Part shown: positions 7,586 to 28,176 of the stretch, piece after piece
Layout of the letters: each line of letters begins with the position of its first letter
How positions within the stretch are numbered: position 1 is the first letter of the stretch
Source: Christensenellales bacterium
Lineage (GTDB): Bacteria; Bacillota; Clostridia; Christensenellales; Aristaeellaceae
Assembly: GCA_045126095.1 (NCBI GenBank)
Contig: JBGVOA010000475.1
Coordinates: 1-40,819 of the forward strand
Direction of reading: 5' to 3'
Length of the DNA stretch: 40,819 nucleotides
Notes under the pieces: model-generated
Seen by the model: only the letters and a program-made list of their open reading frames with translations
The model's database searches: none
What the model was told of the DNA's origin: nothing
Position numbers and translations under genes: made by a program

Positions 7586-7591
7586 TTTGTG

Positions 7592-7642: not shown

Positions 7643-7645
7643 ATT

Positions 7646-11600: not shown

Positions 11601-11764
11601 TATCGTCCGGCAACAATGCCGCTGCCGCATCGACCTCCAACTCGACCATCATCAACAACCACATCAACTATACAGCCGGAGCCGGTACCCGCCGCGAGGC
11701 CCGCATGCTCAATCAGCGACTCGCGCAGGAGCAGCAGGCTGCGCTGATATCGGAGGGACTATAA
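8618..11764 (+). CDS. tail tape measure protein
   Basis: 1048 aa, Ala/Gly/Ser/Glu-rich and helical. GTG start after GGAGGGAG. Canonical position after the G/GT pair. Confidence 0.95.
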   Translation: MATKKELKTILTLEGEKAYSQGMQRIQSALGNVATEHALLNSQYEKGDKSLSKLTRQQDILRRKLDEQRKKVELINKAYQESAKRGEETAAITQSLASDLNMASAAMNRTQRELDALGKELEHVNSRTYQFAESMKSIGVNSQSVGSMMQTVGDKVSKVSLAIAGAVTATSVKGWMTLEDEMANVATIADTSEKSLSDLTAEAIEASNVTGVAAAEIAKAQYQAISANVATAESTGLVANAAKAAKAGVSDVTTVIDGATSIINGWGIAIGESEAVFDKLLKTQQRGKTTIDELATSIGQVTGLAPQLNMSLDETLAAVGALTQNGVATSTAMNGLKAVMSSILKPTAEAKEEAERLGLQFDSAALKAKGFTAFLADVVEKTGGSEDSLAKLFGSVEGLSQIMLLGGSAAGMYADILDDLGNSAGTLNTMFEERTASSAQRFSMALNKINNAAISLGESLAPMINVAADSIEKFADALQGMSAEEAQSVIKTALWIAGISKGISVLGSLVKHASTAATAIKAIGTLLSPGGAVIGGIALAGTAIAGLSALTKKFSAEAVLDISVDDSELENYRVDTHTLEDPVAIVAKAKLEIDRNLSDYSTDVTGWLSDGERETKEELNSYVNRLNSIIEKAYTSVSEFQTQKKEELDAQLAAGLITPEEYSASLETLQGQAAEMEGELTTAADAVISYVTTLVEGNKKITDDEISQLNSLLETLNSTSSAVLDATNTAKQAYEWAYQKTATGIGGEEDRAKAVEYIELQYQTNLSSLQSAENAVKAKYAELAVGATEAETRALAEQEQTELATIQEQLAALEEQRLQMYAELLAGELKQAGVDMATLEDAAANMYATELHEALPATERVFSPYKDLIAETQAAVDVINGVDLSGAKDIISYMVSNGALAQEAVDTTSEALIEMADILRKSEELEDVPDEFSKVGSSAVSGLDSALRSGYTPLRNTMHEMAGMISSELNGILSDMYARLDGVKSSYRSASSSRVSSGNNAAAASTSNSTIINNHINYTAGAGTRREARMLNQRLAQEQQAALISEGL

Positions 11765-12448
11765 ATGGCTAACATAATGGAGTTTAACGGCACCACCAAC
11801 CTGAGGTATGGTGTGGTCGTCACCTCGCTGCCGCCGATACCCACGCCCGAGGAGCGCGGCGAGGACATCGAGATCCCCGGCCGCAACGGCAGTCTTTGGC
11901 GCGGCGACGGCTCATACAGACCGGTGACCATAACGGTGCCTATCTGGGTGCCGCCAAAGACAAGCCTCACTCAGGTGCGCGGCTGGCTCACCGGCAGCGG
12001 GCTGCTCAAATTTGACAACGGAACACTATACTGGGACGCCAGAGTAAGCGGGGAGACGCATTTCGCTCCCCGCGATTTTTACGAGGGTTATGAGGGCACA
12101 GTCACATTTACATGCCAGCCATTCCGACGGGTGAAGGACGAAGAGATAGTCGTCGACAAGAACCCAATGACTATTAATAACCCGTATTCGGCATATGCAG
12201 AGCCGCTGATCGCCGTCACATGCACGGGCGAATTTACGCTCACGGTCAATGGCACGATCTGCACCATCGCCGATTGCTCAGGCGAGGTAATGCTTGACTC
12301 TGAATTGCAGGAAGCATTTATCGGCAATGCGCTGATCAACGACAAGATGACCGGCGCGTTCCCGGTACTGACTCCCGGCGACAACGTGCTCTCATACGAG
12401 GGCGCTGTAACAAAAATCCGAATAAAGCCGAGGTGGAGAACGCTTTGA
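11765..12448 (+). CDS. distal tail protein (Dit, siphovirus tail component)
   Basis: 227 aa immediately after the tape measure. The N-terminus 'FNGTTNLRYGVVVTSLPPIPTPEERGEDIEIPGRNGS' is typical of the Sipho_tail family. Confidence 0.8.
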   Translation: MANIMEFNGTTNLRYGVVVTSLPPIPTPEERGEDIEIPGRNGSLWRGDGSYRPVTITVPIWVPPKTSLTQVRGWLTGSGLLKFDNGTLYWDARVSGETHFAPRDFYEGYEGTVTFTCQPFRRVKDEEIVVDKNPMTINNPYSAYAEPLIAVTCTGEFTLTVNGTICTIADCSGEVMLDSELQEAFIGNALINDKMTGAFPVLTPGDNVLSYEGAVTKIRIKPRWRTL

Positions 12449-15400: not shown

Positions 15401-16986
15401 ATATTCAGCCCACAGTACGCTGTAATCTGTGGAACGGCAACGATCGCGATCATTATTTCAGAGACATCAAGCCTACTGCGAATGACCCCGTCAAGTACGA
15501 GATACCTATTGCGGTGGATTACACAGATTCCATGTATCTCAGGTTTGTTGTCCCGGAGCAGTGGACAGCCGGATACATATACTTCACAGACGTGAAACTG
15601 GAGAAGGGAAGCAGGGCGACGGACTGGTCGCCCAACCCCGAGGAGTTCCGTGCAGGCAGCGCGGTAACGCTTACGGAGGATGAAGTCAGGATCTCCACGC
15701 CGGAGTTCAATGTGGAGATAGTGAGCGACGACGGCGAGACCAACATGCTTTCCATAGACAAGGACGGCGCGCGGATGCAGTCGCTTGTGGCCCCGGACGT
15801 TGCGCCGCGTTATAACGGGCCCGCAGCGCTGTTTGTGAACAAGTCGGCAACGTCGGAACAGATCGCATCAGGCAACTACTACCGAAGTCTGGCAGATGCG
15901 CTGGCGGCGCTGAGCAACAGATGGATCGGCAATGATGTGGAAGTATCTGTGGCTGCGGGTACTGTCGAATACGGCACTGTGACGCTACAGGGAACAGCCG
16001 GAAGCGGCATGATAACAATCACGGGAGATCTAACCAACCATGCAAAACTGGTGGGTAAGCTGCGGGTAGTATACAGCGGGTGCCCTGTAGTGCTGCAAAA
16101 TATGAATGTAGATTCAATGAGCGGCAATGTGGGCATTGAATGCGCAGGCTCTCAGACCATGGTGATCGTTGAGAATTGCGTGATCACCGGCAAGGGCGTA
16201 GGTGCGGCCGGTGGCAGAGGCGTGCTCGCATTCAGAGGCGCAAAGGCCGACGTGCACAGCTGCGAGCTGTACGACCATGAGAGGGCGCTGTACGCCCAGC
16301 AGGCGGGCGCTATACAGGCCTATGACTGCAAGGGCAACTGCAAGATCGGCGTGAGCAGCGGCATTATCCATGCGTCAGGCACTATGCCCGACACAACGAC
16401 AACCTTCGCGCCTGCAAAGTGGGCGGGCGAAGTGTTCGCAAGCAACGTAAGCGTGGATCAGGGTTCCAGACCTTCTACCGAAGCCGAACCCACGACCGTC
16501 AATGTGACGGCCAGCGCCACGGACTCCTGGTACAGCGCATCGGGAGCATGGCTGAATCAGGACAACGTTATCCGACAGGGCTATTACAGCGGCATGGGCG
16601 AATGGTCGGGCTGCTTCTGGTTCCCGACGGCATCCTTCGGCGGCAAGACCATCAAGACCGGCAGTCTTACGCTCACGCGCACCGCAGGCTCGGGCAAGAG
16701 CGGCGAGGTGACGCTCACACTGTACGGCATAACCGTCGCGTCCGCCTCCGGCGATCCCAATTCGGGCCGGGTGAGCTACGGCGCGCTGGGCACTATCGCC
16801 AATGGCGAAACAAAGCCCTTCACGCTGCCCGCAGCCGCCGCGCAGGCGCTGGCTAACGGCACGATAAAGGGATTCATGCTCTGCGCAAATGACGGCGCGG
16901 TGATGAGCGGCAGAAAGTATTCGACCAACTACTGCAAGATAGGCTCCGCGGGCAGCACGCTGCCGCAGCTGAGCGTGACATATTGA
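12445..16986 (+). CDS. tail-associated protein Tal (baseplate hub with long host-recognition extension)
   Basis: About 1513 aa. A TTG start at 12445 (6 nt after GAGGTGGAG) is preferred over GTG 12433. Features, in order:
- A prophage-tail N-domain.
- An SH3b-like insert (TGRVLHAYKKGTEVIVTDKSNPNWYVVAAPDGRSGYMEVRWL).
- About eleven 10-aa repeats (xVTAEKIxxx).
- Two CBM-like modules, each ending in KLExG(N/S)RxTDWSP.PE.
- A beta-helix-like segment (NVGIECAGSQ...VIVENCVITGKG...). Confidence 0.85.
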   Translation: MINVYAPTADDYSNNGLLVLDPWCVSARIREKLNGEYTLTLELEINARTVEVVNEMVIKAPAPVRFTPQLDIYTPSATEIWKVNTNTRRLSLRTKPSTTTGRVLHAYKKGTEVIVTDKSNPNWYVVAAPDGRSGYMEVRWLQYVRDEYSAPVTTGVIEQHKTKEQLFRVRSVSSTLDTITVEAQHISYDLRRNYIKSAATKGKAGAEAFPVMMAATLSAHEFDAYSDIETEITEDIKRKNPIAALFSDGGLVSMAGGEVLRDNFDIYWVRHIGQDRGVTVAYRKNMAGMDVKIDTNGLVTRIIPVGYSKNNEPIYGDPIDSPHIDEYAQPYIMEYEYKDVKVGSGYKTAAEVKTEIERRARLEYDNGIDLPTVSASVDYVDLQNTDIGVDFNAFTGVFLGDTIRIRHEDYRFDIATEINAYEWDVLLGEYVSLELGSKQASLSDVRISPSQIGNGTLAGRKLAAGTVSGAELGEGSVGENHITENAVTENKIADGAVTADKIIAGSVTAEKIAADSITAEKISAEAVTADKIKAGAVTAAKIDAGAVTAEKIASKSITAGQISTGAITAESGIIANGAIGTAQIADGSITEGKVVSLNADVIKTGTLSADRLLLAGDNGVIYKINATSAGLSMTELSKDQYKHYINGTVIVAKSITAAQIAAKTITSNEILAGTITAAEINVENLFASEATIQALNAMDISGNGYLKLYVTNAVDSVQVGGVNLLRNTGDLKISDYDFDASGADAMGSYSEEDEGFRIVCASQNVRWWLGVLPVTPGAQYGMSVRYRMNSGAAPVEFQYVYRNSSHEAVYYQTSANAVQTVRTEDGWTVLMDVITVPSENDITEVRLAVRTGEDYKLYTCDYSIKKPKLEVGNRVTDWSPAPEDTDEDITSLRSEINLIPGKITLAVNEVQVGGTNLIKTAMDDLISVSVGSKWRDDNKTYYQQSGLGMRMEPHTGEYNILHFLSPVLLSPGNYMLSFWCWTYAIDIQPTVRCNLWNGNDRDHYFRDIKPTANDPVKYEIPIAVDYTDSMYLRFVVPEQWTAGYIYFTDVKLEKGSRATDWSPNPEEFRAGSAVTLTEDEVRISTPEFNVEIVSDDGETNMLSIDKDGARMQSLVAPDVAPRYNGPAALFVNKSATSEQIASGNYYRSLADALAALSNRWIGNDVEVSVAAGTVEYGTVTLQGTAGSGMITITGDLTNHAKLVGKLRVVYSGCPVVLQNMNVDSMSGNVGIECAGSQTMVIVENCVITGKGVGAAGGRGVLAFRGAKADVHSCELYDHERALYAQQAGAIQAYDCKGNCKIGVSSGIIHASGTMPDTTTTFAPAKWAGEVFASNVSVDQGSRPSTEAEPTTVNVTASATDSWYSASGAWLNQDNVIRQGYYSGMGEWSGCFWFPTASFGGKTIKTGSLTLTRTAGSGKSGEVTLTLYGITVASASGDPNSGRVSYGALGTIANGETKPFTLPAAAAQALANGTIKGFMLCANDGAVMSGRKYSTNYCKIGSAGSTLPQLSVTY
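13885..14230 (+). repeat. 30-bp in-frame tandem repeats inside Tal
   Basis: Degenerate 30-nt units (for example gcagtaacggctgataagatcatcgccgga, tccgtcacggcggaaaagatcgcagcggac) encode the AVTAEKI-type decapeptide repeats. Confidence 0.8.
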
Positions 16987-16999
16987 GAGAGGTGAGAAA

Positions 17000-19900
17000 A
17001 TGGATGAATTTGAGGTAATCGGTGGACGACAGCTATACCAATGGGACACGGATCGCAGCATCGAGGTCAGACTCTGCGACGGCGAGACAGTAAATGAGGT
17101 ACATTATGCACATGCAGAGGACGATATCGCACCGGTGGTCAAAGTTCAGGATTACGATGGAAGGATGTTTGCGGATATTCCCAATATACTTTTGCAGCGT
17201 TTTGGTACTCTTAAAGTTTGGGCGGTTGTCTACACCGAAGACGGGCGGCAGACTTTGCGGAATGCATATCTTTCAGTGAGAGCGCGTGCTAAACCTGATG
17301 ATTATGTGTACACCGAGACGGAGATCATGGACTACCGCAAGGTAGCCGAGGATCTGGCGGAGCTGGTACAGCGCGTGGAAGAAATCGAAGAGAACGGCGT
17401 ACAGGGCGGCGGCGCGGTTGCATCGGTAAACGGGAAGACGGGAGAGGTGTATCTGAATGCAGCGGATGTAGGTGCGTTGCCTACCACAGGTGGAAAGCTT
17501 ACAGGCAATCTAACCGTCCCCAGGCTTATAAGTACTGCTGCGGACGCGGATGGAAACATCTACGAAGTTCAATTGTACCCTACGGCTAACGGGGGCCTTT
17601 ACATGCCTTTAAGGCATAATGGAGCAGTTGCGAATGCTATCTCGATGTCGCAGTCTGCAACTACGTTCGGCAAGCCAGTGGCGATAAGCTCTGGCGGTCA
17701 CGGCGGAAAAAATGCCGCCGAGGGCCGTCAAAACCTCAGCTTGTACAGCAAAGAGGAAATCGACGAGAAAATAACAAATACACAGAAAGAAATTGAGCGA
17801 CTTACTGAGGAGATTGCGAAACAAGCCACACCTGAGATGTTCGGTGCAACTGGTGACGGCGTGACCGATGATGCAAGCGCTATTACACAGGCTTTGGCAA
17901 GCGGTCAGAACGTTGTTTTTGATGGCAATAAAACATATGCTGTCGGCTCGACGATCACCATTCCTGCTGATGCGCATGTTGATTTCCGTGGTGCGACGGT
18001 TGTTCCGATGGGAAATCACGATGTTATCAGGGTAATGCCGGGATCGTTCGTAGAAAATTTTATTGTGCGTTGCGGCGGTGTCTCTGGTTGGGATTCGGCG
18101 GCAATCGTGCTTTATGGTGCAGATCATTTCCGCGCAATCAATCCAACGACCATTGCCAACGTCAAGCTGTATTGCAACGAAGGGTCGAACGCAGGACTTA
18201 CTACTAATGGCGTTGGTGTCAAACTGTATGGCGACGATTACGGTCATTTCATTGAGGGTATCACGACCGAGGAAATTAGCACATACGGTTTCGGTGTGGG
18301 TATGCTTTTTGAGGGTGTACCGAATGATGCCGAAAATCCAGCAGGTGGCTTTGTGTTTATTGGCGCGAACAAATTCCGAGGGTATTGGTCTTTTTATGAC
18401 AATGTTGCCATCAAAATGCCATCCATTTTTCCAAAGACACATATCACTAACAACATCTTTACAGATCTACAAATTGAACCGCGCAATAGGCCAAATAAAG
18501 ACGATCAATCCTCTTTCGGTATTTTTTGCAACGGTTTTTCCAACCTATTTGAGGGTTGTCTGTATGACTACTTTTACGGGCATACAGGCGTGTACTTTGG
18601 TAAAGGCAGCAACTCGAATGTTGTAAAGACAACCTCAGGAACTTTTTTTGATCCCGGTTGGATTATGGATTATGGCGTTTGCAACATAGTTACAAAATAC
18701 AGTGCGGAAAATCTCAACCTTGTGCCTTCCATTGCGACCACTCCGCGCATGATTGGTGACCAAGATGACTGTTTTGCTTACATGGACAAACGTGCGACTT
18801 GTACGTTGGAATCGTTAGATGCAAACCCTATTTACGGATCGCTTGCGAATTTGTTCAACCCAGCTCCAACAAAAACAGTGCGATATAGGACAATCAATCC
18901 TAACGAAAACGACAGACGTGCAAAAATCACCATCGAATGCAAAAAAAGCATCAGAAGGCTGGCACAATTGTTCTTGCAGTTTTATACGGCACCAAAGTCT
19001 ATAAGAATCACGTACTACAACGATAAGAGTGCAACGGTTGTTTACGACACTGACAACAACGTCAATACGATTGTAGGCGTTTGCGACTATGTTAAGTATG
19101 GCGAAGATTATCAATACAATGTTGCGAAAATCGTTATTGAACTTGGCGGCTGCAACGCCATTGAGGCTGACGGCTCGGAAACTTACGGCGAGTGGGAAAT
19201 TGTACGCATCATGGGTACGGACAGCTACAACAGCGGTGATGCGTGGCTCGGCAGAGGCGGCGGCGAGGTATACGGAAACGTCTTGTTTAATGCTGGTAAC
19301 GGCGTAGTTTTAACCGCCCCTAACGGCAAATTGTACCAAATTACCGTAGGCGATAACGGTGCTTTAAGCACGACGGAAATTCAGCCGGAAAACATCGAGC
19401 CACCGGAGGTAGCTACGCTCACTCCTACCATGTTGCCCGGTTCGACTTGGTATAACGCTGATGCGTCTGGTGTCGGTCAGAATGAAATAACGAGCGTTAC
19501 CTTTAACGCTGCTTATGAATCAACTGGAACGGAAGACGCAAGTTGGCCTTGTGATAAGGATGTCAACGGCAATATCATGGCATATCGTAACGGAACGGAT
19601 GTAGTGATTAAATCGACAACCGGAAGCGAAGGCGTAAAACTCAACCAGGACAGTAGCTATATGTTTGCTAACGATGGAACGAACGCCAACTTTGCTGCAC
19701 TGACTGAAATAAATGGAACAGAAACTTTGTTGGCCGATGAAAAAACGGACGCAAGCAACTTTTGCAAAAACGCGGCGAATCTTACTGGCATGATTTATGT
19801 ACCGGATGGAGTCACATCGCTTGGTTATGCATTCTCTGGCTGCACCAGTCTTGAAACGCCGCCTGTGCTACCAGACAGTGTGGTAAGCCTTCTCAGCGCG

Positions 19901-20227
19901 TTTGGAGCTTGCTCTTCCTTTAAGACGCTCCCAGAAATTCCCAGCTCCACAACAAACATCAATTACGCATTCAATGGTTGTGTTAAGGCGGAAAGTGGGC
20001 CAAGCCAAATTCCGGCAAAGGTAACTGCTATGGAATACGCATTCCGAAATTGCATCTTAGTCACAGGGACTATTGAGGTCAACGCGGTTAAAATCAACAA
20101 TTATACCGGCTGTTTCTTTAATGCAGGTAGAGATAGTGATGGTATTGTTCTTACTGGCACTAACTCGATGTTGGCTGAACTGGCTGCAACTGACACAAAC
20201 GGTAAGGTTACGGTGGCTACAGCTTAA
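17000..20227 (+). CDS. tail fibre / receptor-binding protein with pectate-lyase-like beta-helix and C-terminal BspA-type leucine-rich repeats
   Basis: 1075 aa. Recognisable elements:
- The fibre motif 'SVNGKTGEVYLNAADVGALP'.
- 'TPEMFGATGDGVTDDASAITQAL', typical of Pectate_lyase_3 / tailspike depolymerase N-caps.
- A C-terminus with LRR_5-like repeats (SLGYAFSGCTSLETPP..., LLSAFGACSSFKTLPEIP..., NINYAFNGC..., MEYAFRNC...). Confidence 0.8.
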   Translation: MDEFEVIGGRQLYQWDTDRSIEVRLCDGETVNEVHYAHAEDDIAPVVKVQDYDGRMFADIPNILLQRFGTLKVWAVVYTEDGRQTLRNAYLSVRARAKPDDYVYTETEIMDYRKVAEDLAELVQRVEEIEENGVQGGGAVASVNGKTGEVYLNAADVGALPTTGGKLTGNLTVPRLISTAADADGNIYEVQLYPTANGGLYMPLRHNGAVANAISMSQSATTFGKPVAISSGGHGGKNAAEGRQNLSLYSKEEIDEKITNTQKEIERLTEEIAKQATPEMFGATGDGVTDDASAITQALASGQNVVFDGNKTYAVGSTITIPADAHVDFRGATVVPMGNHDVIRVMPGSFVENFIVRCGGVSGWDSAAIVLYGADHFRAINPTTIANVKLYCNEGSNAGLTTNGVGVKLYGDDYGHFIEGITTEEISTYGFGVGMLFEGVPNDAENPAGGFVFIGANKFRGYWSFYDNVAIKMPSIFPKTHITNNIFTDLQIEPRNRPNKDDQSSFGIFCNGFSNLFEGCLYDYFYGHTGVYFGKGSNSNVVKTTSGTFFDPGWIMDYGVCNIVTKYSAENLNLVPSIATTPRMIGDQDDCFAYMDKRATCTLESLDANPIYGSLANLFNPAPTKTVRYRTINPNENDRRAKITIECKKSIRRLAQLFLQFYTAPKSIRITYYNDKSATVVYDTDNNVNTIVGVCDYVKYGEDYQYNVAKIVIELGGCNAIEADGSETYGEWEIVRIMGTDSYNSGDAWLGRGGGEVYGNVLFNAGNGVVLTAPNGKLYQITVGDNGALSTTEIQPENIEPPEVATLTPTMLPGSTWYNADASGVGQNEITSVTFNAAYESTGTEDASWPCDKDVNGNIMAYRNGTDVVIKSTTGSEGVKLNQDSSYMFANDGTNANFAALTEINGTETLLADEKTDASNFCKNAANLTGMIYVPDGVTSLGYAFSGCTSLETPPVLPDSVVSLLSAFGACSSFKTLPEIPSSTTNINYAFNGCVKAESGPSQIPAKVTAMEYAFRNCILVTGTIEVNAVKINNYTGCFFNAGRDSDGIVLTGTNSMLAELAATDTNGKVTVATA

Positions 20228-20398: not shown

Positions 20399-20427
20399 AT
20401 ACCCAAATCAAAAAGGAGATGGAACAC

Positions 20428-21456
20428 ATGGTAAAACTCTTTACGGATGATCAGATACTGGGCTGGCTTAAAACGAATCTGATCCTGAGGTACTGGTACG
20501 GCTGTCATGGCCACAAGTGCACCGAAGATCTGCTCCAGCGCAAGCGCAAGCAGTACCCGAGTCACTACACGGACGGACGCATGGCCACGTATCGTAAGCA
20601 CATTGCCGCCGGCGATTCCTGCGCGGACTGCGTGGGCGCCATCAAATACGCATACTGGAGCGACCTGGGCGCGCATGGCCAGAAGTACTGCTCCAACGGC
20701 ATGCCCGATGTGAGCGCCGACGGCCTGTTCCGATTCGCCATGGAGCAGGGCTGCGACTGGGGCGCAATTGACACTATCCCCGAGCGTCCCGGCATTGCGG
20801 TGCGTTTTGCTGGCCACGTGGGCTACTACATGGGCGGCGGCGTCGTGCGCGAATGGCGCGGCTACAAGTTCGGCCGCGTGGACACCAGGCTGAAGGACCG
20901 CAACTGGACACACTGGTATGAACTGCCCTTCGTAGATTACGGCGAGGCAGACCAGCCCGAGGCAGAAACGCCCGTATCCATCGGCACGCTGGGCAGCAGG
21001 CTGCTCAAGCAGGGCCGTAAGGGAGACGACGTCAGGCTCTTGCAGGAGCTGCTGGTGGAGCTGGGTTATGCTCTGCCCAAGTACGGCGCAGACGGCGATT
21101 ACGGCAGCGAGACCATCGCCGCGGTGAAGGCATTCCAGAAGGACAACGGCCTGACCGCCGACGGCAAGTACGGAGAGAAGAGCCACGCGGCGCTCATGGG
21201 CATCCTTGCCGAGCGCGAGGCCCAGGACGGTGACGACGATAACGAGACCATTGAGCCGATATTTGTCGAGATTACTGGCAATACGGTCAATATCCGCGAG
21301 GGCGCCGGCACGCAGCATGATGTGATCACCGTTGTACGCAAGGGCACAATGTGCGTCTGGCGCGCGACGGCGGAAAACGGCTGGCATGCGGTGATCCTGC
21401 CCGGCGGCCGTGAGGGATGGGTCGGCCCGAAATACAGTAAGGTGGTGGCAGCGTAA
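20428..21456 (+). CDS. endolysin: NlpC/P60 endopeptidase + PG_binding_1 + SH3 domain
   Basis: ATG 20428 lies 9 nt after AAAGGAG; the track start 20419 has no spacing. Domain evidence:
- Catalytic-type 'DCVGAIKYAYW' and 'GHVGYYMGGG'.
- 'GDDVRLLQELLVELGY...DGDYGSETIAAVKAFQKDNGLTADG' matches a peptidoglycan-binding repeat.
- A C-terminal SH3-like segment (VNIREGAGTQHDVITVVRKGT...GWHAV). Confidence 0.85.
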   Translation: MVKLFTDDQILGWLKTNLILRYWYGCHGHKCTEDLLQRKRKQYPSHYTDGRMATYRKHIAAGDSCADCVGAIKYAYWSDLGAHGQKYCSNGMPDVSADGLFRFAMEQGCDWGAIDTIPERPGIAVRFAGHVGYYMGGGVVREWRGYKFGRVDTRLKDRNWTHWYELPFVDYGEADQPEAETPVSIGTLGSRLLKQGRKGDDVRLLQELLVELGYALPKYGADGDYGSETIAAVKAFQKDNGLTADGKYGEKSHAALMGILAEREAQDGDDDNETIEPIFVEITGNTVNIREGAGTQHDVITVVRKGTMCVWRATAENGWHAVILPGGREGWVGPKYSKVVAA

Positions 21457-21785
21457 TGGACGGACAGTTCTGCATCATACACGACGAAGATATCAAGGAT
21501 CTGCGTGCGGAGATGGCGGCGAATAACAAGGAACATGAATCGTTTCGCCGTCGCCTCCACGAGCACGACGAGCAGATCAATGCGATACATACGCTGGCTA
21601 CATCGGTTGAAAAGCTGGCCGAGGCCATGAACGAGACCAAGAAGACGGTCGAAAAGATCGACCGCCGCGTGGAGGCTATCGAAAACGAGCCCGCCGACAA
21701 GTGGAAGAAGATCTCCTTTGAGGTCGTCAAGACCATTGTGGTGCTGCTCGTCGGCGCTGCGCTGACATATTTCGGAGTAAAGTGA
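21456..21785 (+). CDS. xhlA: XhlA-like lysis accessory protein (coiled coil plus C-terminal TM)
   Basis: 109 aa. The start overlaps the endolysin stop (TAATG). It has an N-terminal coiled coil and a single C-terminal TM helix (ISFEVVKTIVVLLVGAALTYFGV), as in PBSX XhlA-family proteins. Confidence 0.55.
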   Translation: MDGQFCIIHDEDIKDLRAEMAANNKEHESFRRRLHEHDEQINAIHTLATSVEKLAEAMNETKKTVEKIDRRVEAIENEPADKWKKISFEVVKTIVVLLVGAALTYFGVK

Positions 21786-21796
21786 GGAGAAAAAAC

Positions 21797-22063
21797 ATGA
21801 ATGAACAGAATTTTACCAGACTGTGTAAAACAGTAGTGATGAACTATGCAAACGAGCACATGGACAAAACAGACGGTGTTATCATCACTACTGATGATGT
21901 GTATGTCGTCTGGATGTGCAAAACCCTTCAGAACAGCAAGGCTCTGCTGAGCACGACGCTGAGTGATGGGATGTACTATGAACTCACCTACAATGGCGAC
22001 AAAAAGGAGCTTTATCTGGATGCCTATAAAAAGTTCCAGAATGTCTGCATTAACTGCGAATAA
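21797..22063 (+). CDS. hypothetical protein within the lysis cassette
   Basis: 88 aa. ATG 21797 lies 7 nt after GAGGAG. No motif recognised. Confidence 0.6.
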   Translation: MNEQNFTRLCKTVVMNYANEHMDKTDGVIITTDDVYVVWMCKTLQNSKALLSTTLSDGMYYELTYNGDKKELYLDAYKKFQNVCINCE

Positions 22064-22074
22064 GGAGGAATAAC

Positions 22075-22305
22075 ATGAAACAGATTGCAAAAAAGCTCAC
22101 TGAGTTGATCGACGTCAAGACCATTGTGACGCTGATCGTGATGGTAGTGTTTGCTGTGCTGGCCTTGAGCGGCAAGATCACGGCGGACAATGTGATGTTC
22201 GTCACGACTACTGTGGTAGCGTTCTATTTCGGCACTCAGCACCAGAAAAAGGTTGCTGATAAGGCCAAGGCCGCAGCAGCAGCCGACCAGACCGGAGAGG
22301 AGTGA
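22075..22305 (+). CDS. holin (two TM helices, charged C-terminus)
   Basis: 76 aa with an AAGGAGGAA RBS. TM segments are TIVTLIVMVVFAVLALSG and VMFVTTTVVAFYFG. The tail is basic/acidic (KKVADKAKAAAAADQTGEE). Confidence 0.75.
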   Translation: MKQIAKKLTELIDVKTIVTLIVMVVFAVLALSGKITADNVMFVTTTVVAFYFGTQHQKKVADKAKAAAAADQTGEE

Positions 22306-22310
22306 TATTG

Positions 22311-22562
22311 ATGGGAGCTCGTCGTAAATATCCGCAGTATGACAACTGGACGTCGGAGGAGTTCGCCGGGCTCCTCAGTATCGCAAAACTCAGTCCCGAG
22401 GACAAAGAGATCGCCACACAGTGCATTGTGTGGCGGATGGATCTGATAGACGTGGGCGAGGCCCACAACATGGACCGCAGCACCGTATCCCGCCGACTCG
22501 ACAGACATATCCTGCCGGAGCTGGAGCGGATGATGGTGCGCACAAAAATAGCCGGAGCGTAA
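22311..22562 (+). CDS. small sigma-70 region-4-like HTH protein
   Basis: 83 aa from ATG 22311, 8 nt after GGAGAGGAG. 'LSPEDKEIATQCIVWRMDLIDVGEAHNMDRSTVSRRLDR' looks like a sigma region 4 / LuxR-type HTH. It is the last gene of the rightward late transcript. Confidence 0.55.
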   Translation: MGARRKYPQYDNWTSEEFAGLLSIAKLSPEDKEIATQCIVWRMDLIDVGEAHNMDRSTVSRRLDRHILPELERMMVRTKIAGA

Positions 22563-22580
22563 GCTCCGGCCTCTTTTTTT
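22551..22580. terminator. bidirectional rho-independent terminator
   Basis: GCCGGAGC (22551-22558), loop GTAA, GCTCCGGC (22563-22570), then a T7 run. Lies between convergent genes. Confidence 0.85.
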
Positions 22581-22797
22581 ATACATTTATCAGGTCATCG
22601 AGGGAGCAGTTGAGCGCTGCGGCCAATTTCAGCAGCGATTTAGTGTCCGGGGTGCATTTACCGAGCTCCCAGCGGGAGACGTGCTGATGTAGTACGCCCG
22701 CGAGGTCGGCCAGCTGACGCTGGGTCATTCCGCGCTTCCGCCTGAGGACGGCGATGGGGCTTTCATTGGTCTTGCGGGGCTGTGTGTGGTCAGTCAT
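22579..22797 (-). CDS. XRE-family HTH protein (last gene of a 3-gene minus-strand operon)
   Basis: 'RKRGMTQRQLADLAGVLHQHVSRWELGKCTPDTKSLLKLAAALNCSLDDL' is a classic HTH_3. ATG 22797 (6 nt after GGAGG) is preferred over 22803. It overlaps the upstream gene. Confidence 0.85.
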   Translation of the reverse strand: MTDHTQPRKTNESPIAVLRRKRGMTQRQLADLAGVLHQHVSRWELGKCTPDTKSLLKLAAALNCSLDDLINV

Positions 22798-23128
22798 TGT
22801 CATCCTCCTCGCCTTGGGTTAATCTGGAATGGATTTCATCGATGATGTCTCTGCGGGTGTCCTCACACCGTCTATCCAACCAACGCTCGATCAGATCGAC
22901 TACATTGATGCATTTGCCCTCCATATTGTAGTCTCTCGGGAGGTATGCTTCACCGACGCCGTACACGTTAATTTCAACGACTCCGTTATCGTCAACGCGG
23001 ACAATAACATTGGCGAGAGTTTTCACGAAATCGTGAAATATGCCACTCGATCCGGCGGGGCGATACCAGTGCCTAAACCATGTGAGGCTAGGCAGCGCAG
23101 AATTTATTGCGTGTTTGGTGATTTTCAT
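22790..23128 (-). CDS. hypothetical acidic protein
   Basis: 112 aa with an AGGAGG RBS 8 nt upstream. Acidic C-terminus (LTQGEEDDND). No motif recognised. Confidence 0.7.
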   Translation of the reverse strand: MKITKHAINSALPSLTWFRHWYRPAGSSGIFHDFVKTLANVIVRVDDNGVVEINVYGVGEAYLPRDYNMEGKCINVVDLIERWLDRRCEDTRRDIIDEIHSRLTQGEEDDND

Positions 23129-23150
23129 TGTATTTTCCTCCTGCTATTTA

Positions 23151-23543
23151 TTATGCGCCAATGAGACCTCTCTCCACGTACTCATGAAATTCCGGATCGG
23201 CTGCGAGTTCCTCGCGAGAAACATAGCCGCGCTCAAGGGCATCACGATAGAAGGCGCACTTGCCAAACCGCTGTTCGCGATATTCGATAATGAATGCGGC
23301 GTCGTCTGCACGTTCATAAATGAGACACGGAACAGAAATTGCGCGGACACGCTGCTCGTCGCGAGAAATTCTCTCCTGCAGTTTTTCTGCCTTTGCATTG
23401 TCGCCGGAGGCAACGAGATTTTCAACGCGGCTGCGACCGGAGTCAATATTGCGCTGGATCATTGCGATATCATTATTGTATTTCTCGATCCAATTGCGCT
23501 GGATGTCCTTTGCCCATGATATCTGCTTTTCAGTACCCTTCAT
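23151..23543 (-). CDS. hypothetical protein (first gene of the minus-strand operon)
   Basis: 130 aa with a GGAGGAG RBS 6 nt upstream. N-terminal 'TEKQISWAKDIQ' motif, then a helical region. No function recognised. Confidence 0.7.
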   Translation of the reverse strand: MKGTEKQISWAKDIQRNWIEKYNNDIAMIQRNIDSGRSRVENLVASGDNAKAEKLQERISRDEQRVRAISVPCLIYERADDAAFIIEYREQRFGKCAFYRDALERGYVSREELAADPEFHEYVERGLIGA

Positions 23544-23589: not shown

Positions 23590-23618
23590 ATTATACATCA
23601 CAAATGGTGAATAATCAA
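23590..23618 (-). promoter_or_regulatory. consensus-like promoter of the 23543-22579 operon
   Basis: On the minus strand: TTGATT (23618-23613), a 17-nt spacer, TATAAT (23595-23590). Confidence 0.65.
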
Positions 23619-23674: not shown

Positions 23675-23727
23675 TGCACGCATGTGCAGCCCACTTGCAC
23701 CCGTGAAAATCTGGAAAATGCGATAAT
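23675..23727 (+). promoter_or_regulatory. inverted repeat plus extended -10 element upstream of the five-gene cassette
   Basis: TGCAC-GCAT-GTGCA inverted repeat at 23675-23688. Another TTGCAC at 23695-23700. TGcGATAAT at 23719-23727, about 18 nt before the RBS GGAGG (23745-23749). Confidence 0.45.
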
Positions 23728-23757
23728 CAACCCATAGAAACGACGGAGGTGATGCGC

Positions 23758-24210
23758 GTGGCATATGGATATAACCCCAGTTACAACCCTAGCGTCAACT
23801 ACTTTGGCAATCCGTATACGCCGATGATGAATACGGCGGGGCCTATGCAGTCGCCGCCGCAGATGCAGCAGCCCATACAGATGGGGCAGAGCGCGCAGCA
23901 GATGGGCGATCAGCAGCCGGGAACGCTCTTCGCCAGATACGTAGCCAGCCGCGAAGAGGCGGTCGCGGCCATGGTGGCGACCGACGGCAGGCTGAACCTG
24001 TTTGTGGATGAACAGCACGGCATGATCTACGGCAAAGCGGTGGCTCCCAACGGCGCGTCTGCGTTCCGGGAGTTTGCTTACCGGCAGCCCGTGCAGCAGC
24101 AGGAACCGCAGCAGGCACAGCGCTGGGCACCCATGGAAGTGGTCGACCAGCTGCGCGCAGAACTCCAGCAGATAAAGGACATGATGAGCGGAAGGAGTGA
24201 GCAGGAATGA
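23758..24210 (+). CDS. Q/P/N/M-rich low-complexity protein (cassette gene 1)
   Basis: 150 aa from GTG 23758, 8 nt after GGAGG. The alternative start ATG 23752 is too close to the RBS. N-terminal 'YGYNPSYNPSVNYFGNPYTPMMNTAGPMQSPPQMQQPIQMGQSAQQMGDQQ'. Q-rich C-terminal coil. Confidence 0.7.
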   Translation: MAYGYNPSYNPSVNYFGNPYTPMMNTAGPMQSPPQMQQPIQMGQSAQQMGDQQPGTLFARYVASREEAVAAMVATDGRLNLFVDEQHGMIYGKAVAPNGASAFREFAYRQPVQQQEPQQAQRWAPMEVVDQLRAELQQIKDMMSGRSEQE

Positions 24211-24431
24211 TGAATCCTATTCAGTTGATACAGATGCTTCAGCAAAGCGGCAACCCCATGCAGATGCTCACCGGCATAGCCCAGACCAATCCGCAGCTTG
24301 GACAGGTGCTTCAGATGGTCAATGGCAAGACACCCGCGGAAATGGAGAGGATGGCCTATGACATAGCAAAACAGCGTGGTGTAGACCTTAATCTGTTCGC
24401 GAAACAACTTGGCATAAGGCTCCCTAAATGA
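24207..24431 (+). CDS. small Q-rich protein (cassette gene 2)
   Basis: 74 aa. ATGA overlap with gene 1. Contains 'NPIQLIQMLQQSGNPMQMLTGIAQTNPQLGQVLQMV'. Confidence 0.65.
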   Translation: MMNPIQLIQMLQQSGNPMQMLTGIAQTNPQLGQVLQMVNGKTPAEMERMAYDIAKQRGVDLNLFAKQLGIRLPK

Positions 24432-24482
24432 TCGTAACGGCGAATGCCGTTCGAAATACAGACACACGGAGGTGGAACACAA

Positions 24483-25241
24483 ATGAGTGACGACTTTGCA
24501 ATGGGCTACGCACTCGGACAGGACAACAACAGCAACTGTAACGACGGCTTCGGTGGCGGCGGCATCGCTGGCATAATCTGGATCATCGTGATCGCCGCGC
24601 TGTTCGGCGGCGGCTTTGGCTGGGGCGGAGGTTTCGGCGGCTTTGGCGGCGGAGCTGGCCTTCAGGGCATGGCGACCCGCGCCGACATCAACGCCGGCTT
24701 CCAGTTCCAGGACCTGCAGAACGGCGTCCGCGGAATCCAGCAGGGCCTGTGTGATGGCTTTTACGCAGTCAATACAGGCACGCTTAATGGTTTCCACGCG
24801 GTAGATCAGGCGATCAGCAACCTTGGCTATCAGCAGAAGGACTGCTGCTGCGAGACCCAGCGTCTGATCGAGCGCGGCTTCTGCGACACCAACTACAACC
24901 TGGCCACCAACGCCAGCAACATCGTGCAGGCCGGTCATGCGGACACCGACCGTGTGATCGCGAAGCTGGACGCAATGGAGGCAGCGCGCCAGACAAGGGA
25001 GAACGAGGCGCTTCGTCTTGAGAATCAGACCCTGCGCTTCCAGGCCTTTCAGGCCCAGCAGAACAACTTCTTCTCGGCTAATCAGGATGCCCAGACTGCG
25101 GAGTTGATCCGCAGGCTGCGCACTCCCGAGGCAGTACCGGCCTACGTAGTGCCCAATCCCAACTGCTGCTACGGCAACCCCGTGGGCATCGGATACGCGG
25201 GCGGCTATAACAACGGCTGCGGCTGCGGTTCCTGCTGCTGA
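24483..25241 (+). CDS. Gly-rich single-TM protein with Cys-rich tail (cassette gene 3)
   Basis: 252 aa from ATG 24483, 7 nt after GGAGGTGG. Contains 'GFGGGGIAGIIWIIVIAALFGGGFGWGGGFGGFGGGAG', a 'DCCCE' motif and a coiled coil. The C-terminus is 'NPNCCYGNPVGIGYAGGYNNGCGCGSCC'. Confidence 0.7.
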   Translation: MSDDFAMGYALGQDNNSNCNDGFGGGGIAGIIWIIVIAALFGGGFGWGGGFGGFGGGAGLQGMATRADINAGFQFQDLQNGVRGIQQGLCDGFYAVNTGTLNGFHAVDQAISNLGYQQKDCCCETQRLIERGFCDTNYNLATNASNIVQAGHADTDRVIAKLDAMEAARQTRENEALRLENQTLRFQAFQAQQNNFFSANQDAQTAELIRRLRTPEAVPAYVVPNPNCCYGNPVGIGYAGGYNNGCGCGSCC

Positions 25242-25261
25242 GTGACGACGGTTGACTATTC

Positions 25262-25289
25262 GGGCGGCGGGGTATAACCCCGCCGGCCC
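25262..25289 (+). promoter_or_regulatory. GC-rich intercistronic stem-loop
   Basis: GGGCGGCGGGG / CCCCGCCGGCCC: 11 bp with one bulge and loop TATAA. No T run. Lies between cassette genes 3 and 4. Confidence 0.5.
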
Positions 25290-25306
25290 TGAGAAGGAGG
25301 GATAAT

Positions 25307-25705
25307 ATGAGCGGTAATTGCAAACTTTGCAGACGCCTGATCATATCTCAGGCCGTGACTTTTGCCGGTGGAAACCTTCTGATCAACCTGCCGGCAGGAT
25401 CCTATAACAATTGCGAAAAATACTGCATCGTGGTCGCACAGGCGATCCCGGCAGATACGACCATCACCGCCCCGGTTTTTATAACCATCGGCGACGGCAC
25501 CGTCCAGTACCCGCTCAACAACTGCAAATGCGCCCAGCTGACGGCCTGCGCGATCCGCACTCGCACGAAGTACACCACGATCGTCGGCACCACGCCCACC
25601 GGCGGTGCGTTCAAGCTGGTCGGCGGCGCCAGCTGCGCCCCTAATTACAACCTGACGGCCATTGATGGCACCGCTCCCGCGGCGCCTGCGGAAGGAGGTG
25701 CATAA
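25307..25705 (+). CDS. Cys-rich 132-aa protein (cassette gene 4)
   Basis: AAGGAGGG RBS. Nine Cys, including CKLC, NNCEKYC and NNCKCAQLTAC. No motif recognised. Confidence 0.7.
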   Translation: MSGNCKLCRRLIISQAVTFAGGNLLINLPAGSYNNCEKYCIVVAQAIPADTTITAPVFITIGDGTVQYPLNNCKCAQLTACAIRTRTKYTTIVGTTPTGGAFKLVGGASCAPNYNLTAIDGTAPAAPAEGGA

Positions 25706-25706
25706 G

Positions 25707-26360
25707 ATGAAAATGAGCCCGGTAACGCGCATGATGGTGATGAGCGATCGGTATAAAAAATCCAGCAATGGCGAACGCCAGCAAGACGGCAGACATCAGA
25801 TGGAGCAGCCGCGCTACAATGAGGACTACGTGGGGCGCAAGGCCCGGGAGCGTCAGGGTATGCGCCACGGCGGCGAAGATCCTATGGAGATGTCCGGACG
25901 CGACCCGTATTCCAGCCGCGGCATGATGGGTTATGGCCATGAACGCCGTCATTACGACGATGACGACGAGGAGTATGGAGGTAAACCGCAGCGTATGTAC
26001 GCCGCCGGTATGGCATGGACCGAGGGCCATGAAAAGAACCACAAAAAGGAGCACAAAGAGGTAGATGAGGAATGCGCCATGAAATGGGTCAGGGAAATGA
26101 AGGCGGCGGACAACAGCCAGATGCCACATTTCCGCCCGGATCTCGCCGAGCAGATGCGTAAAGCCCATTGTCCCGACTGTAAGCCCTGGGAGTGGTTCAC
26201 GGCGATCAACATGATGTACGCGGACTACATCGAGGTCGCAAAAAAGCTGGGAGTCAACCGCGACGAGTGCTACGCGCTCATGGCCAAAGCCTTCCTGATG
26301 GACGAGGATGCAGGTCCGAATAAACTCAGCAAATACATGGAGGAGATCCCAAAGAAGTAA
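25707..26360 (+). CDS. His/Asp/Glu/Arg/Met-rich protein with structured C-terminal half (cassette gene 5)
   Basis: 217 aa from ATG 25707 after GAAGGAGGTG. Contains 'GHERRHYDDDDEEYGG' and 'HEKNHKKEHKEVDEEC'. The C-half includes 'HCPDCKPWEWFTAINMMYADYIEVAKKLGV'. Confidence 0.7.
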   Translation: MKMSPVTRMMVMSDRYKKSSNGERQQDGRHQMEQPRYNEDYVGRKARERQGMRHGGEDPMEMSGRDPYSSRGMMGYGHERRHYDDDDEEYGGKPQRMYAAGMAWTEGHEKNHKKEHKEVDEECAMKWVREMKAADNSQMPHFRPDLAEQMRKAHCPDCKPWEWFTAINMMYADYIEVAKKLGVNRDECYALMAKAFLMDEDAGPNKLSKYMEEIPKK

Positions 26361-26364
26361 AAGT

Positions 26365-26397
26365 GGCTGGGGCTCAATGCCCCAGCCTGTATTTTTT
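26365..26397. terminator. strong terminator closing the cassette
   Basis: GGCTGGGGC (26365-26373), loop TCAAT, GCCCCAGCC (26379-26387), then TGTATTTTTT. Overlaps the 3' end of the convergent AP2-like ORF. Confidence 0.85.
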
Positions 26398-26730: not shown

Positions 26731-28176
26731 TTAAAAACGCCAATGAACAAGGATATTATTATCATCGACTTCCACATAATCGACAATTGAGCAGAGGGCC
26801 TGATGGATCTCAGCGGGAGTACCGGAAGCGCGGACGGCGCAAAACTGAGTGGCTAGAGAGACTATGTCTTCGGTGGACATGATTTTTGTCTGTGCCTGCA
26901 AATCGGACAGTTCGGACTGTAGCGCCTGTTTTTCAGCGTTGAGCGGCTCGATCTTGCTGCCGATCAGTTCGTAGGGTATATTGCCTGCAGCATAGAGGTC
27001 CATCAGCCTGCTCAGCTGGCCGGAGATCTGGTCGATGCGTGTTTTGAGCGCTGCTTGTTTTTTCGTAGTATCAACAGACTTCCGCAAGCCGTCGATATAT
27101 TGCGGATTGTCGGCAAGAGCGTCAATCTGCGCATATATAATATCGTCAAGCTCAGTATCGCGGTAGTTAAGGTTGCGGCAGTTTGGATCACGTACAAGCT
27201 TTTTATCGCACTTAGATCGACTGTAGCACATATAGTATCCGTATCGGTAAGACCGGGAACTTCCATCAAGCCGCTTGGGATCTGAATGAGCCTTACGATA
27301 GTGATATTTTGCCCCGCATTGCTTGCAGTAAAGCAAGCCGCCGAGGGGCGCGGTATATTTCTTACCGGGCATATAGTGTTCGTTTTTGACTGACCGTTCA
27401 TATAGCACCTGCTGTATGCCGTTAAACTCATCGACTGTGAAGGTTGGTTCATGCAGGCCCGGATACCACTCACCGGCAAACGGGACTTCACCTAAATACG
27501 CGCGCTTTTGCAGCATGCGCCGCAGTGTAGTTACGGTCCACGGCTTACCCTTGATCCGATAGCCCTTTTCGTTAAAGCTGTTGACGATGTCGATTAAAGG
27601 CTCTCTGTTGAGAGTGCGTATTCCAGCTTCGCGTACCTGCATGTTTTCATGTTCATCTTTTATGAGTATACCGGCGGTCTCCTTATCGGTGCTTTTATAA
27701 TATCCGGTTGGTGCAGTGCCGTGCCACAATCCGGCCTTAGCACGTCCAACGAGACCATCGTGTGTGCGTTCCTTGATCTTCTCGCGTTCCAGCTCGGCAA
27801 AAACGGCCAGGATGCCGACCGTTGCGCGGCCGAATGCAGATGAAGTGTCAAAGGCTTCAGCACGCGAGACGAACGCAGCGTCATGCTGCTTAAAAGTATT
27901 AATCAGATAGAGAGTATCCTGCAAGGAGCGGCTGAGGCGGTCGAGCTTATCAACAAGGACAATATCAGCATTGTCGACATTGGCGACCATCTCCTGTAGT
28001 CCGGGGCGCGATGTAGTTGCGCCAGAATAGCCCGGATCAACATATACTTCTGCTACGAGCCAGTCCATCGCATCGGCGTACTTGTTCAGACGTTCCAGCT
28101 GCTCAGGGATTGAGTAGCCTTCCTCTGCCTGCGTTCGCGTCGACACACGGGCGTAGATAAAGCAGCGCTTTTTCAT
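26731..28176 (-). CDS. int: large serine recombinase (phage integrase)
   Basis: 481 aa. The N-terminal resolvase catalytic domain 'CFIYARVSTRTQAEEGYSIPEQ' carries the nucleophile Ser. It also has a recombinase domain, a Cys-rich zinc-ribbon region (YCKQCGAKYHY...YYMCYSRSKCDKK) and a C-terminal coiled coil. AGGAGG RBS. Confidence 0.95.
   Translation of the reverse strand: MKKRCFIYARVSTRTQAEEGYSIPEQLERLNKYADAMDWLVAEVYVDPGYSGATTSRPGLQEMVANVDNADIVLVDKLDRLSRSLQDTLYLINTFKQHDAAFVSRAEAFDTSSAFGRATVGILAVFAELEREKIKERTHDGLVGRAKAGLWHGTAPTGYYKSTDKETAGILIKDEHENMQVREAGIRTLNREPLIDIVNSFNEKGYRIKGKPWTVTTLRRMLQKRAYLGEVPFAGEWYPGLHEPTFTVDEFNGIQQVLYERSVKNEHYMPGKKYTAPLGGLLYCKQCGAKYHYRKAHSDPKRLDGSSRSYRYGYYMCYSRSKCDKKLVRDPNCRNLNYRDTELDDIIYAQIDALADNPQYIDGLRKSVDTTKKQAALKTRIDQISGQLSRLMDLYAAGNIPYELIGSKIEPLNAEKQALQSELSDLQAQTKIMSTEDIVSLATQFCAVRASGTPAEIHQALCSIVDYVEVDDNNILVHWRF

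Follow-up and report, generated by a model that had tools for sequence, protein, structure and literature searches.

Analysis of a 40,819-nucleotide (nt) stretch of DNA from a Christensenellales bacterium (contig JBGVOA010000475.1, positions 1 to 40,819 of the forward strand; hereafter the window), which is a temperate siphovirus genome, identified a cassette of five genes, P1 to P5, that recurs in one fixed order well beyond this phage. An initial annotation of the same DNA had proposed the five genes as an undescribed system, and profile and structure searches likewise assigned them to no known pathway. The families are already catalogued one by one as unknown; the complete system, with its regulator, promoter, interchangeable gene positions, and distribution across domains of life, appears to be undescribed. 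We infer that the cassette serves to build a structure and not to catalyse a reaction. Its products could, although this is less likely than not, form a new kind of phage apparatus, self-regulated, enzyme-free, membrane-nucleated, and of stalk-and-knob form. It would be held together by Cys clusters and exchanged horizontally among unrelated viruses of strictly anaerobic gut bacteria and archaea, and its job would be independent of envelope type (for example egress or membrane remodelling, or an oxygen-triggered cross-linking coat) and not covered by known lysis, defence, or virion modules. The genes of the cassette are as follows.

23758-24210, plus strand: P1, 150 amino acids (aa), GTG start codon with GGAGG 8 nt upstream of the start
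24207-24431, plus strand: P2, 74 aa, ATGA overlap with P1
24483-25241, plus strand: P3, 252 aa, the signature protein of the cassette
25307-25705, plus strand: P4, 132 aa
25707-26360, plus strand: P5, 217 aa, starting 1 nt past the P4 stop codon

The five plus-strand open reading frames (ORFs) lie where the initial annotation had placed them, every one is preceded by a GGAGG-type ribosome-binding site, and the public protein collection stores all five with identical start choices. Thousands of conserved homologues in conserved synteny show that they are real genes. The earlier description of the cassette as an autonomous transcription unit was borne out, as a terminator closes the preceding operon and the cassette is served by a -10 element and a terminator of its own. 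The G+C content (GC) of the cassette, judged by eye in the initial annotation to resemble the phage backbone, is 0.58-0.60, which agrees with the structural module (0.55-0.62) and differs from the flanks (0.49-0.50).

Related loci, comprising 80 genomic loci and 3 GenBank phages, were fetched through P3 and searched with iterative hidden Markov models (HMMs). Across these 83 loci, P1-P2-P3-P4-P5 are encoded on one strand in invariant order, and P4 and P5 overlap or abut; the census suggested in the initial annotation thus found the five families to co-occur as a fixed-order block. P1 and P3 form the constant core, and positions 2, 4, and 5 each take one of two non-homologous forms, designated P2 or P2alt, P4 or P4alt, and P5 or P5alt (hhalign detected no homology between P2 and P2alt, P4 and P4alt, or P5 and P5alt). 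P2 is found together with P5 and P2alt with P5alt, and P4 and P4alt assort independently. A further family, P0 (phrog_3754, ~125 aa), is encoded in 37 loci (e.g. L049 4718-5095 and L001 2702-3100), though not in the window, and in 26 loci lies directly upstream of P1, always with a P2alt-type cassette. The invariant residues of P0 (NxNP, GDC..RA, Cys, His, and Asp) present a papain- or transglutaminase-like catalytic pattern; the family had no match in Pfam or the PDB.

P3 contains 12 Cys and 16% Gly, and its single hydrophobic segment spans residues 28-46, so that composition analysis confirmed the Cys count and agrees with the one transmembrane segment that had been ascribed to it. It matches the PHROG profile phrog_16490, a family of unknown function, at 4.4e-52. 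Homologues of P3 number at least 7,596 clusters at 90% identity, and the matches listed have neither Pfam domains nor informative names. When 1.84 billion representatives were searched by profile, 2,141 clusters at 50% identity were found, of which the best 150 are all 80-330 aa in length. The Gly/Phe/Trp-rich hydrophobic anchor occupies residues 28-60, and in the family it consists of a 12-14-residue hydrophobic core flanked by Trp and then a stretch rich in the same three residues. Other invariant features are a Thr-Arg pair, QQGLCD..YA, CCC, a helix with the pattern ENQ.L.F.ASQ..QN, and PAYVVPNPNCCYGNP followed by a GCGC end; the central segment of the family alignment is recombinant. The AlphaFold2 (AF2) model of P3, built from a 46-sequence alignment, has a predicted local distance difference test score (pLDDT) of 47.5 and was read for secondary structure only. 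It places a helix at residues 29-40, two long helices at 64-118 and 125-212 split by the CCC loop, and a disordered tail, a prediction that is as expected of an oligomeric coiled coil modelled as a monomer.

Two further observations concern P3 and its surroundings. In prophage loci L022, L024, and L064, P3 is broken into two to three ORFs, which may reflect frameshifts, decay, or assembly errors. An optional ORF of 66-80 aa, located between P3 and P4 or just past P4 (e.g. L017 6723-6965, L037 6594-6830, L070 6672-6911, and L087 4845-5045), encodes a hydrophobic N-terminal segment and a conserved helical tail (..sndElm.EL..Q...YLekII.qn.eIl..L) and may be a sixth component of the cassette.

P4, for which 4,356 homologues were found, shares 63-85% identity with those that were aligned. 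It contains 8 Cys, not the 9 counted in the initial annotation; C8, C40, and C110 are invariant and only 3-4 Cys are conserved. Its AF2 model (pLDDT 68.7) is an eight-strand beta-sandwich, or knob, that had no match in the PDB at E<0.1 with Foldseek. In BFVD, this model of pLDDT 68.7 retrieved members of its own family, and next came C-terminal domains from proteins named as collagen triple-helix repeat, tail fibre, receptor-binding, and tail-collar fibre proteins (probability 1.0, E 1e-3 to 1e-2, query TM-score 0.43-0.54). Another BFVD match, A0A8S5LXP6 from CrAss-like virus sp. ctRQZ5 (294 aa, "DUF7841 domain-containing"; TM-score 0.54, root-mean-square deviation 1.8 over 85 columns), would join a P4-like fold to the domain found in P5, an apparent fusion that hints, in the Rosetta-stone sense, at cooperation between P4 and P5. 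The whole of the alternative form, P4alt (~140 aa), can be aligned to Pfam BclA_C (8e-8 and 5e-7), with 32.7 and 30.1 bits, below the cut-off of 38.

P5 consists of a disordered N-terminal half rich in R, M, G, D, E, Y, and H, with 9 His in the protein, and a C-terminal half that holds all 4 of its Cys. Residues 107-212 match Pfam DUF7841 (PF25223) with 75.4 bits against a cut-off of 25.2 (E 5.4e-21). Common to the homologues are the DUF7841 helices and a short MN..KMMLM start, along with a linker that varies greatly in both length and composition. In the window copy this region carries a His-rich tract, for which metal binding was considered, but the tract is not conserved among these homologues, whose linkers are instead rich in R, G, Y, S, and D; in P5alt, an R/G/Y/S/D-rich linker likewise stands between an N-terminal and a C-terminal helix. 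DUF7841 also adjoins P3 homologues in Bacteroides and crAss-like phages.

The Gln-rich character that had been noted for P1 and P2 was confirmed at 15% Gln for each. P1 begins with a Y/N/P/Q-rich stretch and ends in a helix, with a small domain between the two, and matches phrog_21718, also a PHROG profile of unknown function, at 4.3e-8. It was found upstream of P3 in 73 of the 83 loci, most of the others being cut by contig ends, and a word-index homologue search with P1 recovered 43 close relatives only, none of them named. P2 (11% Met) is helical and translationally coupled to P1, the two genes overlapping by 4-8 nt across loci. Essentially all loci carry a small Gln/Met-rich ORF in the gap between P1 and P3, either P2 or the HMM-distinct P2alt. 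A supposed fusion of a P2-like segment to the N-terminus of Bacteroidota P3 scored only 5 bits by HMM and was dropped.

Beyond DUF7841, a search of P1 to P5 against Pfam and NCBIfam returned nothing, and profile searches of the PDB with P3, P4, P4alt, P0, and P5 gave no meaningful match. No PADLOC-DB 2.0 model matched P1 to P5, P0, P2alt, P4alt, or P5alt at E<=0.1, with the sole exception of a chance-level Csn2 match at 0.044. The window proteins had no BclA_C, CotZ/CotY, or DUF3992 match in Pfam. No signal peptide and no second transmembrane or hydrophobic segment was found in P1, P2, P4, or P5, in agreement with the earlier assignment of a membrane segment to P3 alone. In the literature library searched there was no mention of DUF7841, the PHROG identifiers, or the carrier phages in the context of the cassette, and no proteomic data for a carrier phage came to light; in GenBank the genes carry the label "hypothetical protein" or names driven by coiled-coil similarity.

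The unit exceeds five genes, as a gene for a putative helix-turn-helix (HTH) regulator, REG, lies upstream. The elements around it and those that delimit the cassette are the following.

22075-22305, plus strand: 76-aa transmembrane protein
22302-22562, plus strand: REG, a small HTH protein of 86 aa and the last gene of the lysis-region operon
22551-22570, plus strand: intrinsic-terminator-like hairpin and T-run that closes the operon of lysis genes and REG
23675-23699: TGCAC motifs (TGCAC at 23675 and 23695, GTGCA at 23684)
23719-23727, plus strand: extended -10 element, TGCGATAAT, 39 nt ahead of the P1 start, with no good -35 element
26365-26387, plus strand: strong bidirectional intrinsic terminator with a 9-bp perfect stem (8 G-C pairs) followed by TGTATTTTTT, a T-run

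The REG gene and the preceding gene for the 76-aa transmembrane protein share 4 nt, and REG is translationally coupled to the lysis-region operon. In 58 of the 83 loci, the genes upstream of P1 include one on its strand for an HTH protein of the REG family (66-87 aa), which in 24 loci lies no more than 250 nt from P1. In a search of the window ORFs with an HMM for the family that was built in this analysis, REG matched at E 1e-5, and the reciprocal search with REG recovered 14 of the family's proteins. Relatives of REG match Pfam GerE (2.7e-6, 27.3 bits against a cut-off of 23.5) and Sigma70_r4_2 (7.5e-6, 25.9 bits against 25.7); the window copy has no Pfam match, and its link to the family rests on the HMM built here. 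We infer that REG is a dedicated regulator of the cassette. The second-best match to the REG HMM in the window is a 134-aa protein encoded at 39987-40391 on the plus strand, which has DUF1492/Sigma70_r4_2 matches, is distantly related to the cassette regulator, and is probably a general late-gene activator upstream of the packaging genes.

The extended -10 element and the strong terminator proposed in the initial annotation were both found. Of 73 related loci, 11 have the pattern TGnGAnAAT in the 250 nt ahead of P1, where 1.8 would be expected, and the distance to the start codon is usually 37-41 nt, a range that includes the window copy; the -10 call thus has comparative support. The inverted repeat TGCAC-N4-GTGCA that had been said to open the unit is present at 23675-23688 and is the only exact copy in the window, but a repeat with 5-bp arms is by itself not beyond chance. 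At the same spot in L089, a near-identical phage, there are four direct TGCAC copies with a spacing of 10, 11, and 21 nt (shuffle fraction 0.002). The L089 order is the 76-aa transmembrane protein, an 83-aa protein equivalent to REG, a terminator hairpin that matches the one at 22551-22570 and here directly precedes the cassette, the four TGCAC repeats, TGCGATAAT, and P1. The TGCAC motifs are possibly an operator to which REG would bind.

Two wider claims about these repeats were set aside. The inverted repeat as an operator shared with an immunity region was rejected, as the window holds no second copy, and a direct-repeat array between REG and P1 in all loci is kept only as a lead, because the exact 5-mer test was significant in L089 only. 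The stretch from REG to P1 often contains two to five degenerate direct repeats (TGATA, TGACA, or GGCACA) at a spacing of ~11 nt, followed by a hairpin and T-run leading straight into TATGnGAnAAT (examples are L036/L037 5046-5137, L071 5057-5163, L061 5164-5257, L016 5063-5182, and L070 4726-4895).

Genome matches came mostly from Oscillospiraceae, Acutalibacteraceae, Lachnospiraceae, Ruminococcus, and other Clostridia of animal guts. On a 557-kb Prevotella scaffold the P1-P5 block is complete. P3 is encoded by the isolated Bacteroides uniformis phage C3_41T2LP with the same Gly/Phe/Trp anchor, CCC motif, PAYCVPNPNCCYG, and GCGCGC end. The genes that follow it there encode a P4-like beta protein, a coiled-coil protein that has YNPS at its N-terminus, a 77-aa protein rich in R/D/Y, and a DUF7841 protein. 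P3 is also found in more than 10 crAss-like genomes, one of which, cr125_1, has the order holin, LysB-like protein, DUF7841 with a disordered tail, P3, and P4-like protein. Annotated genes of cr125_1 (locus L085; e.g. 4452-5108, 5776-6675, and 7164-7724) contain in-frame stops under translation table 11, in keeping with reports that some crAss-like phages reassign a stop codon. A phrog_16490 gene is also present in a predicted Methanomassiliicoccales virus. Six isolated Clostridium perfringens phages have P3 homologues; in one of these, XP41-N3, P1-P2-P3-P4 are recognised by HMM (E 1e-25, 6e-19, 1e-42, and 5e-23) downstream of an antirepressor gene and upstream of Gam/Erf genes, and vB_CpeS-17DYC has the same gene layout. 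Among 72,556 plasmids, the window P3 had no match and the C. perfringens P3 had two marginal matches, to an 861-kb replicon and a 2.4-kb fragment. The cassette, whose neighbours are phage genes, is phage-restricted and is neither spore-specific nor lysogeny-specific.

The initial annotation had asked whether the block always lies next to integrase or lysis genes. It does not: cassettes were found past the lysis genes by the integrase, and also inside head modules, past receptor-binding protein (RBP) genes, and in early regions. In the ~55 loci with a complete 3' end, the next two genes downstream include a tyrosine integrase in 18, serine-recombinase domains in ~4, and a phage scaffold gene in 6. 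The upstream neighbours in many Clostridia loci are often endolysins, holins, or XhlA-like proteins, and head-module cassettes have a protein with a transmembrane segment and coiled coil, P0, and REG directly upstream. The variety of genomic sites indicates that the cassette behaves as a portable unit. In the window itself, the remaining annotated features of the phage are these.

382-2157, plus strand: terminase
2147-3340, plus strand: portal
3914-5356, plus strand: major head protein
8618-11764, plus strand: tape measure protein
12433-20227, plus strand: tail proteins
20419-21456, plus strand: endolysin
21456-21785, plus strand: XhlA-like protein
21782-22063, plus strand: DUF6275 protein
26731-28176, minus strand: large serine integrase

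No near-identical DNA was found among GenBank phages. The window was also compared with L089. Three minus-strand genes of the window at 22579-23543, encoding proteins of 130 aa, 112 aa, and 73 aa (the last an XRE/HTH_3 protein), sit between the terminator of the lysis operon and the cassette promoter, with a promoter-like site of their own at 23618..23590. They are absent from L089, which marks them as a separate insertion and an independent accessory unit (moron), possibly of toxin/antitoxin-like or abortive-infection type. The distal tail gene also differs, encoding a 761-aa protein with a Pfam CotH domain in L089 (2280-4565) and a 1075-aa tailspike with LRR_5/BspA and endosialidase-N-terminal matches in the window (17000-20227); this difference is a host-range module swap.

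Taken together, the anchor, long helices, Cys clusters, knob, gene coupling, and dedicated regulator, and the lack of any enzyme, argue for a structural assembly nucleated by P3. The short hydrophobic segment of P3, rich in Gly/Phe/Trp, would anchor it in the cytoplasmic membrane, and the two long helices joined by the invariant CCC loop would mediate its oligomerisation; it would display an invariant Pro/Asn/Cys/Gly tail at which the Cys-bearing, fibre-tip-like P4 would dock to complete the stalk and knob. The coupled pair P1-P2 and the co-varying P5, with its disordered linker and DUF7841 domain, may act as assembly or scaffolding partners, and REG, co-produced with the lysis genes, may activate the cassette promoter, which has no -35 element, late in infection. 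Because P1, P2, P4, and P5 have neither a signal peptide nor a second transmembrane segment, assembly would be cytoplasmic.

As to what such an assembly might do, the leading candidate, though itself less likely than not, is a late accessory device acting on the host cytoplasmic membrane in lysis or virion release; a portable virion fibre and an exclusion or conversion function accord with much of the same evidence. A range that takes in monoderm Clostridia, diderm Bacteroidota, and an archaeon favours a common target, the cytoplasmic membrane, over virion-specific attachment, and the coupling of REG to the lysis genes, together with the adjacency to a holin gene in crAss-like phages, favours late action and hence lysis or egress. 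Several points weigh against this reading. Adjacency to lysis genes is also the default moron position in temperate Firmicute phages, and carrier phages already encode holins and endolysins. In the C. perfringens phages and C3_41T2LP the cassette lies among early or recombination genes, a location that counts against egress and a virion fibre alike, as both are late functions. The P3 model is of low confidence, and in a positive-inside analysis the charges flanking the hydrophobic segment did not single out one membrane topology. The upstream repeat motif is statistically supported only in L089, and four soluble, partly disordered partners are not typical of lysis systems.

Less probable again is a virion accessory fibre or decoration, in which P3 would form a coiled-coil stalk, fixed in the capsid or tail by its hydrophobic N-terminus, and P4 a distal knob, with P1, P2, and P5 as assembly chaperones or adaptors and the Cys clusters cross-linking when virions leave strictly anaerobic hosts and encounter oxygen. 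This proposal is in line with the BFVD matches, in which the P4 model resembles collagen-repeat, tail-fibre, RBP, and tail-collar proteins at their C-terminal domains, with the full-length, below-cut-off alignment of P4alt to BclA_C, and with the absence of signal peptides from the cassette proteins. Others have labelled crAss-like P3 "spike protein/glycoprotein" or "outer capsid protein/viral fiber", but these annotations probably reflect coiled-coil similarity alone. The position of the cassette can be read both ways: it is often past tail-fibre or RBP genes, in 6 loci it precedes the scaffold gene, and virulent phages carry it too, yet it is a separate transcription unit behind a terminator, and in phages of C. 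perfringens and B. uniformis it lies in early or recombination regions. A fibre would further have to attach to unrelated virions, those of siphoviruses, crAss-like podoviruses, and an archaeal virus, and a membrane-type hydrophobic segment and long disordered partners would be unusual for one.

It is doubtful that the cassette serves superinfection exclusion or another modification of the envelope, with a membrane-anchored complex that alters the host surface or membrane, so as to block incoming phages or change host fitness, and is expressed from its own promoter in lysogens or early in virulent phages. Such a moron would suit the classic lysogenic-conversion slot that the cassette holds in temperate Clostridia phages, where an integrase lies within the next two genes in ~22 of ~55 loci, and would suit its own promoter element and terminator, its early-region location in C. 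perfringens phages, and the second, independent moron right beside it in the window. Mosaic interchangeable genes and the recombinant centre of P3 are likewise typical of arms-race loci, but P4 is unusually conserved, at the identities given above. No PADLOC model matches any component, five to six genes would be large for exclusion, the coupling of REG to late lysis genes speaks against expression in lysogens, and phages of three envelope types that differ greatly would all have to be stopped by a single mechanism.

Remodelling of the spore coat or exosporium, in which the proteins would be made in the mother cell and cross-linked on the forespore through Cys, Tyr, or Gln, was an analogy of the initial annotation and is now very improbable, being largely refuted by host range. 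The analogy does have echoes. Most hosts are Clostridia; the proteins lack signal peptides and are rich in Cys and Gly/Tyr; P4alt resembles BclA_C, below threshold, and the regulator resembles GerE; the invariant Cys-His-Asp of P0 is compatible with a papain- or transglutaminase-type fold; and L089 has a CotH-domain tail protein. However, P3, P4-like, and DUF7841 genes are found in B. uniformis and crAss-like phages, P1-P5 on the Prevotella scaffold, and a P3 homologue in the Methanomassiliicoccales virus, and the hosts of all of these are non-sporulating. With phages of Bacteroides and Prevotella, virulent crAss-like phages, and an archaeal virus among the carriers, a spore-specific role is unlikely. 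The window P4 moreover has no BclA_C, CotZ, or DUF3992 match and no fold match in the PDB, and no sporulation-sigma promoter is evident, the promoter resembling a housekeeping extended -10 type. Metal or redox buffering, in which the Cys clusters, the Met-rich proteins, and the tracts of His, Asp, and Glu would serve as metal ligands or oxidant scavengers, is highly improbable too: it has in its favour the 12 Cys of P3 and 8 of P4, 8-11% Met in P1, P2, and P5, the His/acidic tract of P5, and strictly anaerobic hosts throughout, but that tract is not conserved, CCC, CC, and GCGC match no known metal-site pattern in profile searches, and the architecture of anchor, long helices, and knob is structural.

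The cassette is one of the larger multi-gene modules of gut phages without an assigned function. Few accessory genes span Crassvirales, Clostridia siphoviruses, and an archaeal virus, and such a range implies a function that does not depend on the type of host envelope; its own regulator and promoter architecture allow the cassette to be treated as a system. Because some carriers can be cultured (C. perfringens phages XP41-N3, CPD1, and vB_CpeS-17DYC, and Bacteroides phage C3_41T2LP), its function is directly testable, and any answer, whether an egress device, a portable virion fibre, or an exclusion system, would give a function to thousands of "hypothetical protein" genes of the gut virome.

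Among known systems, i-spanins of the lambda Rz type and XhlA or holin-T-type proteins resemble the predicted architecture of P3 in having an N-terminal anchor, two long coiled-coil helices, and conserved Cys, and resemble the cassette in being phage-encoded and often beside holin or endolysin genes, but they share no sequence or profile similarity with P3. Unlike a two-component spanin, the cassette encodes no partner lipoprotein, as no lipobox is present among P1, P2, P4, and P5, and P3 has four soluble companions. Most hosts of the cassette are monoderm Clostridia, with archaeal hosts in addition, and offer no outer membrane to fuse; the carriers also have holins already, and cr125_1 a LysB-like gene as well. 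BclA exosporium fibres and the tip fibrillae of L-Ena, from Bacillus/Clostridium spores, share with the assembly proposed for the cassette a stalk with a small jelly-roll-like beta knob (P4alt aligning to BclA_C), Cys-rich connectors, the lack of signal peptides, and a small GerE-like regulator nearby. In the cassette, however, the predicted stalk is alpha-helical, lies on a separate polypeptide, and has no collagen repeat, the window P4 does not match BclA_C, and the genes are phage-borne and occur in non-sporulating hosts.

The knobs of phage fibres and RBPs are the domains on which the P4 model superposes in BFVD, and reovirus sigma-1 is, like the predicted P3, a long helical protein with a hydrophobic N-terminal anchor. 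P4, in contrast, is a free-standing protein of 132 aa, and the cassette is portable across unrelated virion types instead of being fixed in a tail module. The lysogenic-conversion morons of Firmicute prophages, which lie between the lysin gene and attR or the integrase gene, occupy the same position as the cassette here and in many relatives, and likewise have their own promoter and terminator and a dispensable accessory content. The cassette differs from them in that it is also carried by virulent crAss-like and C. perfringens phages and in that its regulator is coupled to late genes.

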